From assembly GCF_041248615.1 (NCBI RefSeq), contig NZ_CP158426.1: 64,000 nucleotides of DNA; one strand, given 5' to 3'. The DNA comes from Escherichia coli. Its GTDB lineage: Bacteria > Pseudomonadota > Gammaproteobacteria > Enterobacterales > Enterobacteriaceae. Below, piece by piece: positions 17,373-21,008 of the stretch; the first letter of the stretch is position 1; every line of letters starts with the position of its first letter. A program made the position numbers and the translations under genes. Under the pieces are notes generated by a model that was not told where the DNA came from, searched no databases, and was given only the letters and a program-made list of their open reading frames with translations.

Positions 17373-18189
17373 CACTCCAAAGTTTTCTGTTTTGATGGCT
17401 ATATACATCAAGGATTCTCCCCTATTTCTCTCTGAGGCTTTACAATCAATTTATAAAAATACGGTTGCCCCAGATGAAGTTATTATTATTCGTGATGGTA
17501 AGGTCACATCTGAACTCAATTCTGTTATTGATAGTTGGAGAAGATATTTAAATATAAAAGATTTCACACTTGAAAAAAATATGGGGTTGGGGGCAGCGTT
17601 AAATTTTGGGTTGAATCAATGTATGCATGATTTAGTAATACGTGCTGATTCTGATGATATAAATAGAACAAATCGATTCGAATGTATACTTGATTTTATG
17701 ACTAAGAATGGTGATGTTCATATTCTTAGCTCTTGGGTTGAAGAGTTCGAATTCAATCCAGGAGATAAGGGCATAATAAAAAAAGTACCAAGTCGGAATT
17801 CTATACTTAAATATTCAAAAAACAGATCTCCTTTTAATCACCCTGCAGTTGCATTTAAAAAGTGTGAAATAATGCGCGTCGGTGGTTATGGAAATGAGTA
17901 CTTATATGAAGATTATGCCCTTTGGTTGAAATCTTTAGCTAATGGATGTAATGGTGATAATATTCAACAAGTTTTAGTTGATATGAGATTTTCAAAGGAA
18001 ACAGCAAAAAGACGAGGTGGAATAAAATATGCCATTTCAGAAATTAAAGCTCAGTATCATTTTTATCGTGCAAATTATATATCATATCAAGACTTTATAA
18101 TAAATATTATCACAAGGATATTTGTTAGACTTCTTCCCACTAGTTTTCGTGGCTATATATATAAAAAAGTTATCAGGAGATTTTTATGA
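17362..18189 (+). CDS. Glycosyltransferase, family 2 (inverting, GT-A fold)
   Basis: 275-aa ORF; N-terminal FSVLMAIY...DEVIIIRDG and ADSDD (DxD-like) motifs. Confidence 0.7.
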   Translation: MSDDTPKFSVLMAIYIKDSPLFLSEALQSIYKNTVAPDEVIIIRDGKVTSELNSVIDSWRRYLNIKDFTLEKNMGLGAALNFGLNQCMHDLVIRADSDDINRTNRFECILDFMTKNGDVHILSSWVEEFEFNPGDKGIIKKVPSRNSILKYSKNRSPFNHPAVAFKKCEIMRVGGYGNEYLYEDYALWLKSLANGCNGDNIQQVLVDMRFSKETAKRRGGIKYAISEIKAQYHFYRANYISYQDFIINIITRIFVRLLPTSFRGYIYKKVIRRFL

Positions 18190-19610
18190 GCTCACCTCTT
18201 ATTCCGGTTATATTAAGTGGTGGTAATGGTACTAGGTTATGGCCACTATCTAGAGAGGAATATCCTAAGCAGTTTTTAAAACTAACCGACTCAATATCAA
18301 TGCTGCAATCAACAATATCTCGGTTAGACTCATTAAATACTTCCTCTCCAGTTGTAATATGCAATGAATTACACAGATTTATTGTTGCAGAACAACTCAG
18401 GCACTTAAATAAATTAGATAATAATATTATTTTAGAACCATCTGGTCGCAATACTGCACCTGCTATTTGTATTGCTGCTTTAATTTTAAAAATGAAGCAT
18501 CCAAATGAAAATCCACTTATGCTCGTTCTTCCAGCCGATCACTCCGTAAAAAAAGTCAAAACTTTTTGTAATACAATAAAAAGTGCTATTCCCTTCGCTG
18601 AAGCTGGTAATTTGGTTTCTTTTGGTATTAAACCTACTCATCCTGAGACGGGGTATGGATATATACAAAAAGGCAAAGTGTTATCTGATTCTGATATATA
18701 TGAGGTCAGTGAAGTTAGAACTTTTGTTGAAAAGCCTAATCTTAAAACAGCAGAAAGCTTTATAGAAAAAGATGAGTATTATTGGAATAGTGGTATGTAT
18801 TTGTTTAGTGTTGAACGTTACTTACAAGAGTTATCATTATACCGACCAGACATAGTTAAAGTATGCCAGGAAACTGTTAAAAATATTCATTATGATATGG
18901 ATTTTATTAGATTGGACGATAAAATATTTCGGAACTGTCCACAGGAGTCTATTGATTATGCTGTAATGGAGAAAACAAAGGATGCTGTAGTTGCTACAAT
19001 GGATATCGGTTGGAATGATGTAGGAGCATGGTCTTCGCTTTGGGAATTAGGGAAAAAAGACTCCTCTGGTAATGTTATCACGGGAGACATCGTTTGCCAC
19101 GAGACAGAAAATAGTTATATTTATACTGAGTCTGGATTGGTAGCAACTATTGGTATTCAAGATCTTGTTATTATTCATACTAAAGATTCATTACTGGTTT
19201 CCAGACGTGATTCAGTACAAAATGTAAAAAATATTGTTCAGCATCTTGATTTGTCAGGACGTAAAGAACATAAAGAACATAGGGAAGTATTCAAGTCATG
19301 GGGACGATGTGACTCCATAGATAGTAGTGAAAAGTACCACTATCAGGTCAAACGAATAACAGTTAATCCAAGTGAAAAATTATCGTTGCAATTGCATCAT
19401 CACCGTGCGGAACATTGGGTTGTTGTAATGGGGATTGCTAAAGTTACAGTTGCAGAAGAAATAAAAATTTTAAAAGAGAATGAGTCTGTATATATTCCTG
19501 CAGGTATTAAGCATAGTTTGGAAAATATTGGGACAATACCACTTGTGTTAATAGAAGTTTGGACCGGTTCTTATCTTGCTGATGATGATATCCTTCGATT
19601 TGAAGATTGA
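18186..19610 (+). CDS. manC: Mannose-1-phosphate guanylyltransferase / mannose-6-phosphate isomerase ManC
   Basis: 474-aa ORF, nucleotidyltransferase N-terminus (SGGNGTRLWPLS) and C-terminal cupin; AT-rich. Confidence 0.85.
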   Translation: MSSPLIPVILSGGNGTRLWPLSREEYPKQFLKLTDSISMLQSTISRLDSLNTSSPVVICNELHRFIVAEQLRHLNKLDNNIILEPSGRNTAPAICIAALILKMKHPNENPLMLVLPADHSVKKVKTFCNTIKSAIPFAEAGNLVSFGIKPTHPETGYGYIQKGKVLSDSDIYEVSEVRTFVEKPNLKTAESFIEKDEYYWNSGMYLFSVERYLQELSLYRPDIVKVCQETVKNIHYDMDFIRLDDKIFRNCPQESIDYAVMEKTKDAVVATMDIGWNDVGAWSSLWELGKKDSSGNVITGDIVCHETENSYIYTESGLVATIGIQDLVIIHTKDSLLVSRRDSVQNVKNIVQHLDLSGRKEHKEHREVFKSWGRCDSIDSSEKYHYQVKRITVNPSEKLSLQLHHHRAEHWVVVMGIAKVTVAEEIKILKENESVYIPAGIKHSLENIGTIPLVLIEVWTGSYLADDDILRFED

Positions 19611-19643
19611 TATGGTAGAGCTTAGAAATAGAGAGTCTTAATA

Positions 19644-21008
19644 ATGCTAACTTGCTTTAAAGCTTATGATATTCGCGGGAAACTAGGCGAAGAACTGAAT
19701 GAAGATATCGCCTGGCGCATTGGGCGTGCCTATGGCGAATTTCTCAAACCGAAAACCATTGTGTTAGGCGGTGATGTCCGCCTCACCAGCGAAACCTTAA
19801 AACTGGCGCTGGCGAAAGGTTTACAGGATGCGGGCGTCGATGTGCTGGATATCGGTATGTCCGGCACCGAAGAGATCTATTTCGCCACGTTCCATCTCGG
19901 CGTGGATGGCGGCATTGAAGTTACCGCCAGCCATAATCCGATGGATTATAACGGCATGAAGCTGGTGCGCGAGGGGGCTCGCCCGATCAGCGGGGATACC
20001 GGACTGCGCGATGTCCAGCGCCTGGCAGAAGCCAACGACTTCCCCCCCGTTGACGAAACCAAACGCGGTCGCTATCAGCAAATCAATCTGCGTGACGCTT
20101 ACGTTGATCACCTGTTCGGTTATATCAATGTCAAAAACCTCACGCCGCTCAAGCTGGTGATTAACTCCGGGAACGGCGCGGCGGGTCCGGTGGTGGACGC
20201 TATCGAAGCCCGCTTTAAAGCCCTCGGCGCACCTGTGGAATTAATCAAAGTACACAACACGCCGGACGGCAATTTCCCCAACGGTATTCCTAACCCGCTG
20301 CTGCCGGAATGCCGCGACGACACCCGCAATGCAGTCATCAAACACGGCGCGGATATGGGCATTGCCTTTGATGGCGATTTTGACCGCTGTTTCCTGTTTG
20401 ACGAAAAAGGGCAGTTTATCGAGGGCTACTACATTGTCGGTCTTCTGGCAGAAGCGTTCCTCGAAAAAAATCCCGGCGCGAAGATCATCCACGATCCGCG
20501 TCTCTCCTGGAACACCGTTGATGTGGTGACCGCCGCGGGCGGCACTCCGGTGATGTCGAAAACCGGACACGCCTTTATTAAAGAACGTATGCGCAAGGAA
20601 GACGCCATCTACGGTGGCGAAATGAGCGCCCACCACTATTTCCGTGATTTCGCTTACTGCGACAGCGGCATGATCCCGTGGCTGCTGGTCGCCGAACTGG
20701 TGTGTCTGAAAGGAAAAACGCTGGGCGAACTGGTGCGCGACCGGATGGCGGCGTTTCCGGCAAGCGGTGAGATCAACAGCAAACTGGCGCACCCCGTTGA
20801 GGCGATTAATCGCGTCGAACAGCATTTTAGCCGCGAGGCGCTGGCGGTGGATCGCACCGATGGCATCAGCATGACCTTTGCCGACTGGCGCTTTAACCTG
20901 CGCTCCTCCAACACCGAACCGGTGGTGCGGTTGAATGTGGAATCGCGCGGTGATGTACCGTTGATGGAAGAAAAGACAAAACTTATCCTTGAGTTACTGA
21001 ACAAGTAA
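19644..21008 (+). CDS. manB: Phosphomannomutase ManB (CpsG-like allele)
   Basis: 454-aa ORF; sequence recognised as near-identical to E. coli CpsG/ManB (TASHNP active-site region); GC-rich, unlike upstream manC. Confidence 0.9.

Follow-up and report, generated by a model that had tools for sequence, protein, structure and literature searches.

The window, by which we mean the whole 64,000-nucleotide stretch of Escherichia coli NRZ14408 analysed here, carries the O7 O-antigen cluster at bases 6.9–21 kb, with manB as its final gene. The assignment follows the RefSeq annotation of an 'O7 family' flippase and polymerase, vioA, vioB, and wbbD, and is consistent with the gene content, as the O7-specific wzx and wzy lie between galF and gnd together with rmlBDAC, vioAB, wbbD, manC, and manB. 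The window and NZ_LT599825.1 match at 100% identity over 26.3 kb. The colanic-acid gene cpsG of NRZ14408 is found outside the window, a point absent from the initial annotation of this DNA; it is located 22.4 kb upstream of manB, as a direct repeat. The right-hand end of the cluster is organized as follows, and the coordinates and plus-strand orientation first assigned to manC and manB were confirmed.

18186–19610, plus strand: manC, GDP-mannose pyrophosphorylase/PMI, 474 amino acids (TIGR01479, NCBIfam, 700 bits)
19611–19652, plus strand: AT-rich manC–manB spacer and the first three manB codons (ATG CTA ACT), original-cluster sequence upstream of the 5′ junction
19644–21008, plus strand: manB, annotated 'phosphomannomutase CpsG', 454 amino acids (NCBIfam, 1048 bits, full length)
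19653–20970, plus strand: cpsG-type manB core, a recombinant tract of ~1.32 kb defined by cpsG identity, informative sites, and a GC3 of 0.655
20971–21008, plus strand: AT-rich manB 3′ tail, 13 codons and stop (peptide GAAGAAAAGACAAAACTTATCCTTGAGTTACTGAACAAGTAA; GC 0.31)
21009–21171, plus strand: manB–gnd spacer, which travels with the tail as a right-end module common to several O-antigen clusters
21172–22578, plus strand: gnd, part of the host backbone flanking the O-antigen cluster (NCBIfam gnd, 775 bits)

The two mannose genes differ sharply in composition, as the initial annotation had claimed in setting an AT-rich manC against a GC-rich, CpsG-like manB. ManC has a GC content of 0.347 and a GC3 of 0.234, and the rest of the O7 cluster has a GC3 of 0.20–0.25. 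The gene is specific to this cluster: 97 genomes have it at 99% identity or more, and all remaining genomes reach ~70% at most; it gives only patchy matches of 67–70% to cpsB, and the nearest ManC proteins outside O7 are 89% identical (in an O7-like variant cluster) and then at most 62%. In 150-nt windows, the GC content steps up from 0.33 to 0.52–0.63 between 19600 and 19700 and drops to 0.34 again at 20950–21100. Between these steps, the manB core has a GC content of 0.561 and a GC3 of 0.655, and the colanic-acid genes wzxC, wcaK, and wcaL have a GC3 of 0.62–0.70.

The compositional steps coincide with recombination breakpoints. ManB is 96.4% identical to the NRZ14408 cpsG over 1323 nt without gaps (window positions 19648–20970), with four amino-acid differences in that span, versus just 62.5% to the truly AT-rich O111 rfbK (GC 0.35); this same-genome comparison, which the initial annotation had proposed, came out as it anticipated. 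A two-breakpoint scan placed the cpsG-type tract from ~19653/19658 to 20969/20971. Of the informative sites inside the tract, 457 side with cps and 9 with the AT-rich manB of O111; outside it, the corresponding numbers are 189 and 207. The maximum chi-square scan located the 5′ break between 19652 and 19658, adjoining the 19610–19650 interval first suggested for it; the last non-cps informative site is 19652, and the maximum chi-square of 289 was reached in none of 200 permutations. Upstream of this break, the manC–manB spacer is without similarity to the cpsB–cpsG spacer, and the third manB codon is ACT, as in O111 rfbK, where cpsG has ACC. No Chi sites were found near the junctions, within 17–23 kb of the window. 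The second, 3′ break at 20969/20971, inside manB and followed by the 13-codon AT-rich tail, went unnoticed in the initial annotation. ManB is thus a chimera, with a cpsG-type middle of 1.3 kb between short AT-rich ends.

The product of the chimeric gene scores 1048 bits against the phosphomannomutase family NF011943 (cut-off 801), aligning residues 2–454 to positions 4–456 of 456, and both the catalytic SHNP motif at residue 96 (Ser96) and the metal-binding DGDFDR motif at residue 243 are intact. The homologous manB of the O7-like variant contains four PGM_PMM domains. Judged by its sequence, the manB product is likely an intact phosphomannomutase that would provide the Man-1-P that ManC uses towards the O7 mannose residue.

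We consider it highly probable that an AT-rich manB was overwritten by an E. coli cpsG allele in an old event and that the gene has exchanged sequence with cpsG as one pool since then. The 3′ tail is central to this reading. Mismatches to cpsG take up 17 of its 38 nt, compared with 48 in the 1323 nt of the core (binomial p = 4.5e-15). In frame and lysine-rich, the tail is homologous to the C-termini of the AT-rich O111 and EA13 ManB proteins and unlike every cpsG tail examined; eight of its 13 residues are like AT-rich ManB tails and six like cpsG, a count that is not decisive alone in a stretch of 13 codons. The tail is identical in the manB of O6, O11, and O39 and differs by one residue in O88, while the tail of the O7-like variant (EEKTQLILNLLKN) has diverged at the same rate as the cluster in which it resides. 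In a set of 5,426 complete E. coli genomes, tail and spacer were found together at no less than 80% query coverage in 434, the full-length matches listed being 92.7–100% identical, and the sequence is 100% identical in O39. The gnd leader alone (the last 45–70 nt of the spacer) gave 716 further matches in many other genomes. The tail is probably a remnant of the original AT-rich O-antigen-type manB and, being AT-rich and not of cpsG type, supports the replacement of a pre-existing manB over the capture of a whole cpsG.

Such a capture, in which a duplicated cpsG came to lie beside gnd first and the AT-rich O7 genes, including manC, were assembled upstream of it without there ever being an AT-rich manB, seems unlikely to us. 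It would fit a cpsG-type tract that makes up 97% of the manB ORF, a 5′ junction that coincides with the start codon across all serogroups examined, and a manB–tail–spacer–gnd module shared across unrelated manC genes, such as the O39 manC at 64.6%. However, it leaves unexplained the in-frame tail with its homology to ManB C-termini and the match of manB codon 3 to the AT-rich class. In addition, AT-rich manC–manB pairs exist in O111 and EA13, and O157 has a different AT-rich tail (EKKTKALLKLLSE) with its 3′ junction ~15 nt further upstream, as expected if another original manB had been converted independently.

The initial annotation attributed the replacement to the nearby cps allele. Recombination with a cpsG-type sequence holds, but the resident cpsG is not identifiable as a recent donor. 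Of the 5,426 genomes, 4,674 contain a full-length cpsG match, and the core is 95.7–96.8% identical to cpsG in all of these. NRZ14408 manB is 96.4–96.6% identical to its own cpsG, versus 95.7–96.8% for the cpsG of unrelated strains, and the best cpsG match is ~96.8% in a sampled ranking of the 5,426 genomes. Same-genome manB/cpsG pairs are 95.9–97.6% identical, and so are no closer as a class than pairs from different genomes, the mean manB–cpsG identity being 96.15%. The initial annotation had also held that its idea would fail if manB were no closer to cpsG than to other O-antigen manB alleles. The O7 manB is indeed as close to the manB of O6, O11, O39, O88, and O157 (95.7–96.8%) as to cpsG, but only because those alleles are cpsG-type themselves; the comparison was poorly posed, and the idea is not wrong.

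The relationship between the two genes is that of undifferentiated paralogues. Three lines of evidence point to this. First, the mean identity is 95.8% within manB, 96.6% within cpsG, and 96.15% between them. Second, the combined set has an Rmin of 41 recombination events, and 39% of site pairs are incompatible. Third, there are no fixed differences between manB cores and cpsG and 65 shared polymorphisms, so that the two form one recombining pool. Among the 5,426 genomes, we found no cpsG more than ~97% identical to the whole core and, for each allelic form of a 571-nt middle patch, nothing at 98% or above outside O7 itself. Since no donor allele was found, we infer the direction of transfer from cpsG to manB and the number of events. 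Gene conversion as the mechanism and the age of the replacement are inferred too.

The junctions bear on this age. The 5′ junction (MLTCF) and the 3′ junction both recur in REL606, whose cpsG is 3.4% different from that of NRZ14408, and in the O7-like variant cluster, which is ~12% diverged (its other genes are 85–89% identical). Junctions common to both indicate that the chimera long predates NRZ14408. An overwriting of manB by its own cpsG in NRZ14408 or its immediate ancestors is therefore very improbable, despite the direct-repeat arrangement of the two genes 22.4 kb apart, the recombination known between them in E. coli B, and the place of the resident cpsG nominally among the best matches to manB. 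The 48 mismatches to it are evenly spread, with a longest identical run of 107 nt (p = 0.6), and it is no closer to manB than the cpsG of unrelated strains; the 3.6% divergence effectively refutes a recent replacement. The uniform spread of mismatches also rules out same-genome concerted evolution in NRZ14408. A GC-rich donor of another species, for instance a Klebsiella-type man operon as in O8/O9, would fit the sharp GC step, as would any GC-rich donor, but is refuted by the identity values and has next to no chance of being right: core and E. coli cpsG share 96% identity and have zero fixed differences, whereas O9-family rfbK reaches only 77.9% to the 571-nt segment of the REL606 manB core used as query.

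Exchange after the original event left its mark within O7. Between NRZ14408 and REL606, the galF–manC block is 0–0.37% diverged, manB 1.39%, and gnd 4.1%. A central portion of manB, ~550 nt long, holds 18 of its 19 differences, and a 3′ stretch of 504 nt is identical (p = 0.002). The manB of the O7-like variant on a metagenomic scaffold (scaffold_27; ERZ28579555, sample SAMEA3136653) has exactly 12 differences from the common form of that variant's manB, all 12 of which match the scaffold's own cpsG, and it shares with that cpsG an identical run of 551 nt (0 of 5,000 permutations). This patch is possibly a recent conversion; it may also represent two paralogues collapsed during assembly, as it comes from a metagenome assembly and the exact ManB protein is present on that one scaffold only. 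No unconverted AT-rich partner of the O7 manC was recovered among the ManC homologues: the manB adjoining the 89% homologue of the O7-like variant is already chimeric, and the contig of a 62% homologue (L014) stops just past manC.

We used these observations to put together a model of how the present manB may have arisen. The AT-rich genes of the O7 cluster would have brought an ancestral AT-rich manB along. A colanic-acid cpsG allele of E. coli would then have overwritten nearly all of the manB ORF, by homologous recombination of the RecA type or by gene conversion, so that only the first three and last 13 codons of the original gene survive. This overwriting presumably preceded the split of O7 from the 12%-diverged O7-like cluster, and the resulting chimeric right end, consisting of core, tail, and manB–gnd spacer, would be the one held in common with O6, O11, O39, and O88. 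Patch exchange between manB cores and cpsG would have continued later, keeping a single pool of alleles ~4% apart. As a result, two direct repeats of 1.3 kb with 96% identity lie 22.4 kb from each other, and a crossover between them would excise both the O-antigen cluster and the distal colanic-acid genes.

A more speculative extension, which we hold to be possible though doubtful, is that the right-end module (core, 13-codon tail, and 163-bp spacer) of at least five serogroups descends from a single ancestral chimera, and that this module acts as a portable homology anchor. The core would recombine freely with every cpsG of the species and set where the right-hand crossover falls in O-antigen switching and in deletions leading to rough cells; the tail would not be convertible because homology stops there. 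The serogroups with this module (O6, O7, O11, O39, and O88) account for about 8% of complete E. coli genomes. In the six serogroups examined, the 5′ junction falls within the first ~30 nt, yet the N-terminus is different in each, so a single ancestral chimera alone is not a sufficient explanation. If the homology-anchor reading were true, the donor of the NRZ14408-type middle patch, itself unsampled, could hint at exchange with a cps pool outside the sampled E. coli.

The replacement matters in practice in three ways, though it raises no new question. First, because of the manB/cpsG repeats, O7 strains (among them E. coli B and BL21 derivatives) are liable to deletions of 22–23 kb in which the O-antigen genes are lost along with some of the colanic-acid genes. 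Second, manB is a poor marker for O-typing and for the phylogeny of O-antigen clusters because of its reticulate evolution with cpsG; annotation pipelines, moreover, name it "colanic acid CpsG". Third, the locus exemplifies the homogenization of a horizontally acquired gene by a housekeeping-like paralogue, with terminal remnants left behind.

Replacement by a cpsG-type manB is already known from O7, O157, and other serogroups, and the case described here is an ordinary instance of it; the population-scale comparison is new only in detail. The O7 genes rfbM and rfbK of strain VW187 are the same genes as manC and manB here. In 1993, Marolda and Valvano (J Bacteriol 175:148) reportedly noted for VW187 both the higher G+C content of O7 rfbK and its close likeness to CpsG. 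Jensen and Reeves (Microbiology 147:599) are said to have described, in 2001, several Salmonella O-antigen clusters with a manB of colanic-acid origin or a chimera. Such Salmonella O-antigen manB genes would reflect the same process as in O7, in a sister species. The manB/manC genes of Salmonella groups A–E have a GC content of 36–41% (PMC3715488) and so are not converted.

Three E. coli systems offer the closest comparison. In O157, the colanic-acid cluster was the source of the sequence that replaced manB, and the gene is subject to gene conversion (PMC3158064, citing Samuel et al. 2004, J Bacteriol 186:6536); manB is the most divergent gene within that serogroup, which has been put down to this conversion. 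Like O7, O157 has an AT-rich manC adjoining a cpsG-type manB (~96%) with a retained AT-rich 3′ tail; its tail and 3′ junction differ as described above, and downstream of its manB come an IS remnant and perB, where O7 has gnd. In O14, the O-antigen cluster was lost via recombination between two manB genes (Jensen and Reeves 2004, as cited in PMC7685785), which is the crossover outcome for the same repeat pair; O14 is deleted, whereas both copies and the cluster are intact in NRZ14408. Finally, in REL606 (E. coli B), manB and cpsG are 96% identical, seven rearrangements were due to their recombination, which deletes the intervening DNA, and 10 of 12 long-term evolution populations lost the region (Raeside et al. 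2014, mBio, PMC4173774). REL606 has a degraded O7 cluster at the same locus, with ManB and ManC proteins identical to those here (WP_000954427.1 and WP_000097983.1), and shares with NRZ14408 the 96% manB/cpsG identity and the direct repeats ~22–23 kb apart. Unlike REL606, NRZ14408 is without the IS1 between wbbD and manC, its cluster looks intact, and its manB carries another ~550-nt middle patch.

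The order of genes around the locus is wzxC-wcaK-wcaL-wcaM-galF, the O7 O-antigen cluster, gnd, ugd, wzzB and the his operon. Over positions 1-26329 the window matches E. coli NRZ14408 (NZ_LT599825.1) at 100% identity, and its position 1 corresponds to position 1987672 of that record. The cluster itself runs rmlBDAC, O7 wzx, vioA, vioB, glycosyltransferases, O7 wzy, wbbD, manC and manB, and its right end comprises the following features:
18186-19610, manC, penultimate gene of the O7 cluster
19644-21008, manB, last gene of the O7 cluster
21172-22578, gnd, right of the O7 cluster
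The colanic-acid genes cpsB and cpsG are located immediately upstream of the window, that is, outside it. The start of cpsG is 22,431 bp upstream of manB in the same orientation, and the two genes form direct repeats of 1.3 kb. In the E. coli B strain REL606 (locus L004), an IS1 at 6342-7039 separates wbbD from manC and wbbD is shortened, whereas the window has neither alteration and its O7 cluster appears intact. Elsewhere in the window, a complete pdu propanediol-utilisation microcompartment operon occupies 43511-58042 on the minus strand (feature region 43511-60746), beyond which lie pduF and pocR and then a cobalamin riboswitch (60572-60746) and cobUST; the drop in GC content at 58-60 kb corresponds to the control region of pduA/pduF/pocR.

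The compositional step between manC and manB described in the initial annotation is real and sharp, both in 150-nt GC windows and in GC3. GC content is 0.31-0.41 along manC, climbs at about 19675 to values of 0.52-0.63 and falls to 0.34 at 20950-21100. The GC3 of manC (0.234) resembles that of the remaining O7-specific genes (0.20-0.25), and the GC3 of the manB core, the cpsG-type tract (0.655), resembles that of wzxC, wcaK and wcaL (0.62-0.70). The ManB protein matches the NCBIfam profile "phosphomannomutase CpsG" over its full length (1048 bits) and contains SHNP at Ser96 and DGDFDR at 243; judged from these motifs and the full-length match, the enzyme is predicted to be intact. At the nucleotide level, manB aligns ungapped to the resident cpsG over 1323 nt (19648-20970) at 96.4% identity with four amino-acid changes, and manC has only patchy similarity (67-70%) to cpsB. 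O111 rfbK, a truly AT-rich O-antigen manB (GC 0.35), is merely 62.5% identical to O7 manB, and an O9-family rfbK is 77.9% identical to a 571-nt segment of the REL606 manB core. Because identities to cpsG are about 96%, against 62.5% and 77.9% for these alleles, the manB core is unambiguously of the E. coli cpsG type.

A maximum chi-square scan with two breakpoints, in which cpsB-cpsG and the AT-rich manC-rfbK of O111 served as parents, bounded the recombinant tract at 19652/19658 and 20969/20971. Informative sites were 457 cps-like and 9 O111-like within the tract and 189 cps-like and 207 O111-like beyond it, and the chi-square of 289 was matched in none of 200 permutations. The 5' break falls at manB codons 3-4 (ATG CTA ACT / TGC TTT), where the third codon, ACT, belongs to the AT-rich class and cpsG has ACC. 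Together with the identities, the scan supports the proposal that manB was overwritten by cpsG-type sequence through recombination, and it places the 5' break adjacent to the suggested 19610-19650; the second, 3' break inside manB had been overlooked. The last 38 nt of manB (GC 0.31) differ from cpsG at 17 positions; the core, by comparison, has 48 differences in 1323 nt (binomial p = 4.5e-15). This tail, consisting of the AT-rich last 13 codons and the stop, encodes 13 residues where cpsG encodes EARTRTLLTLLNE before its stop. It is in frame, homologous to ManB C-termini and lysine-rich, resembling the truly AT-rich ManB tails of O111 (QEKTEEILNFISK) and EA13 (QEKTKEILSFLSK). The manB of O157 also ends in an AT-rich tail, but a different one, with its junction about 15 nt further upstream; the different tail and shifted junction suggest that the O157 conversion was an independent event.

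We read the O7 tail as a probable leftover of the original AT-rich manB, and as a remnant it supports replacement of a pre-existing manB over insertion of a whole cpsG copy. Capture of an entire cpsG duplicate by a cluster with no earlier manB is quite improbable, as it does not account for the AT-rich tail being in frame, for a third codon of the AT class or for the distinct O157 tail. Under the replacement reading, an AT-rich manB would have come in with the AT-rich O7 cluster; E. coli cpsG would then have overwritten it, by homologous recombination or gene conversion, out to the limits of homology; and the converted manB would subsequently have swapped patches with the species-wide cpsG pool.

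The source of the replacing sequence was assessed in seven genomes with both manB and cpsG, plus O39. All core comparisons (manB-cpsG, cpsG-cpsG and cross-serogroup manB-manB) fell within 93.8-98.9%, mostly 95.5-97.6%, and the resident NRZ14408 manB-cpsG pair (96.4-96.6%) is indistinguishable from between-genome pairs. Among the matches listed in a sampled ranking of 5,426 complete genomes, no cpsG was closer to manB than about 96.8%. Mismatches between manB and the resident cpsG are evenly spread, with a longest identical run of 107 nt (p = 0.6). Since the resident pair behaves like cross-genome pairs and its mismatches are even, the exchange is not recent and is not traceable to this genome's own cpsG. 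The nearby cps allele favored initially as donor is no closer than cpsG of unrelated strains and shares no long identical run; of the earlier interpretation, the kind of event and the position of the 5' break stand, and the recency and the specific donor do not. A recent replacement of manB from the resident cpsG is contradicted by the evenly spread 3.6% divergence and by junctions that are old and shared, and the 96% identity of the core to E. coli cpsG rules out a GC-rich foreign donor. As a separate observation, 749 of the 5,426 complete E. coli genomes had no megablast match to manB or cpsG; in these genomes, cpsG may be absent or strongly diverged.

The cpsG-type manB adjoining gnd is not confined to O7. 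The 3' junction is common to the manB of O6 (CFT073), O11, O39 and O88: the tail is exactly that of O7 in the first three, O88 has a single residue changed, and the spacer between manB and gnd is almost the same across all five. Tail plus spacer, at a coverage of at least 80%, occurs in 434 of the 5,426 genomes. The 5' junction lies inside the first ~30 nt of the reading frame in all six serogroups, with the serogroup-specific ManB N-termini MLTCF, MSSLPCF, MKSLTCF, MKKLTCF, MEKLTCF and MPKNRVITSF. O7 manC is restricted to O7 (at least 99% identity in 97 genomes; ~70% or less in all others). The O39 cluster of E. coli CUVET16-321 has the same rml-vioA ... manC-manB layout as O7; it matches O7 at 100% in both the manB tail and the manB-gnd spacer, but its manC is only 64.6% identical and its ManB starts with MPKNRVITSF.

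The sole close relative of O7 ManC (89% amino-acid identity) comes from an O7-like cluster found in gut metagenomes and NCBI assemblies (ENA ERZ28579555 scaffold_27; NCBI GCA_045001205.1) and not found in the 5,426 complete genomes. This cluster sits in an E. coli background, keeps the O7 gene order at 85-89% nucleotide identity (~12% divergence) and may be an undescribed O7-related O-genotype. Its manB has the MLTCF start and 3' junction of O7, an AT-rich tail that is homologous to that of O7 yet diverged (EEKTQLILNLLKN) and a core 94% identical to O7 manB. Because both clusters have the same start and 3' junction and a homologous tail, the chimera is older than their split. A more distant O7-like cluster (Logan SRR25604655; ManC 62%) has the same upstream gene order, and its contig stops directly after manC, before any manB.

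Across nine manB cores and seven cpsG genes, we found no fixed differences and 65 shared polymorphisms, a Hudson-Kaplan minimum of 41 recombination events and failure of the four-gamete test by 39% of informative site pairs. Identity averages 95.8% among the manB cores, 96.6% among the cpsG genes and 96.15% between the two groups. Thus, manB and cpsG form one recombining pool. A comparison of NRZ14408 with REL606 shows 0-0.37% divergence across the galF-manC block (5661-19610) and 2.4-4.8% in the flanking cps genes and gnd (gnd itself 4.1%). This near-identical block between host-specifically diverged flanks indicates that the whole O7 cluster spread horizontally and recently, with junctions near wcaM/galF and manB/gnd. 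The two manB genes are 1.39% diverged, and all 19 differences are synonymous, since the ManB proteins are identical; 18 of them fall in ~550 nt mid-gene, and a 504-nt 3' stretch is identical (p = 0.002). Exchange between manB and cpsG-type sequence went on within the short history of O7. The mid-gene patch (19950-20520) separates an NRZ14408 type (18 genomes) from an E. coli B/CE10/IAI39 type (75 genomes) by 3.2%; among the 5,426 complete genomes, no other cpsG or manB gene matched either form at 98% or more, which leaves the patch donor unsampled.

In scaffold_27, a metagenome scaffold carrying the O7-like cluster, exactly 12 sites of manB, between nt 777 and 1173, depart from the common form of the variant (identical in one NCBI assembly and a second metagenome), and the other 6.4 kb of the locus shows no difference from that form. 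All 12 sites match the cpsG of the same scaffold, within an identical run of 551 nt (0 of 5,000 permutations):
L011 7460-8824 versus L017 3049-4419 (O7-like variant loci), manB-cpsG identity of scaffold_27, 551 nt
This patch is the cleanest candidate for a conversion and reflects either very recent gene conversion or paralogue collapse in the assembly, the latter being possible because the exact ManB protein was found on that single metagenome scaffold only.

For the O-antigen loci of E. coli and Salmonella, a cpsG-type manB is textbook knowledge, and it has already been described for this very locus. Marolda and Valvano (1993) sequenced the O7 manC/manB genes and reportedly remarked that rfbK is richer in G+C and resembles CpsG. 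In REL606, recombination between the manB and cpsG repeats is behind seven rearrangements, and 10 of the 12 populations of the long-term evolution experiment lost the manB-cpsG region (PMC4173774). The same repeat recombination cost the O14 type strain its O-antigen cluster (PMC7685785). For O157, it is published that the colanic-acid gene replaced the original manB and that gene conversion ensued (PMC3158064, citing Samuel et al. 2004).
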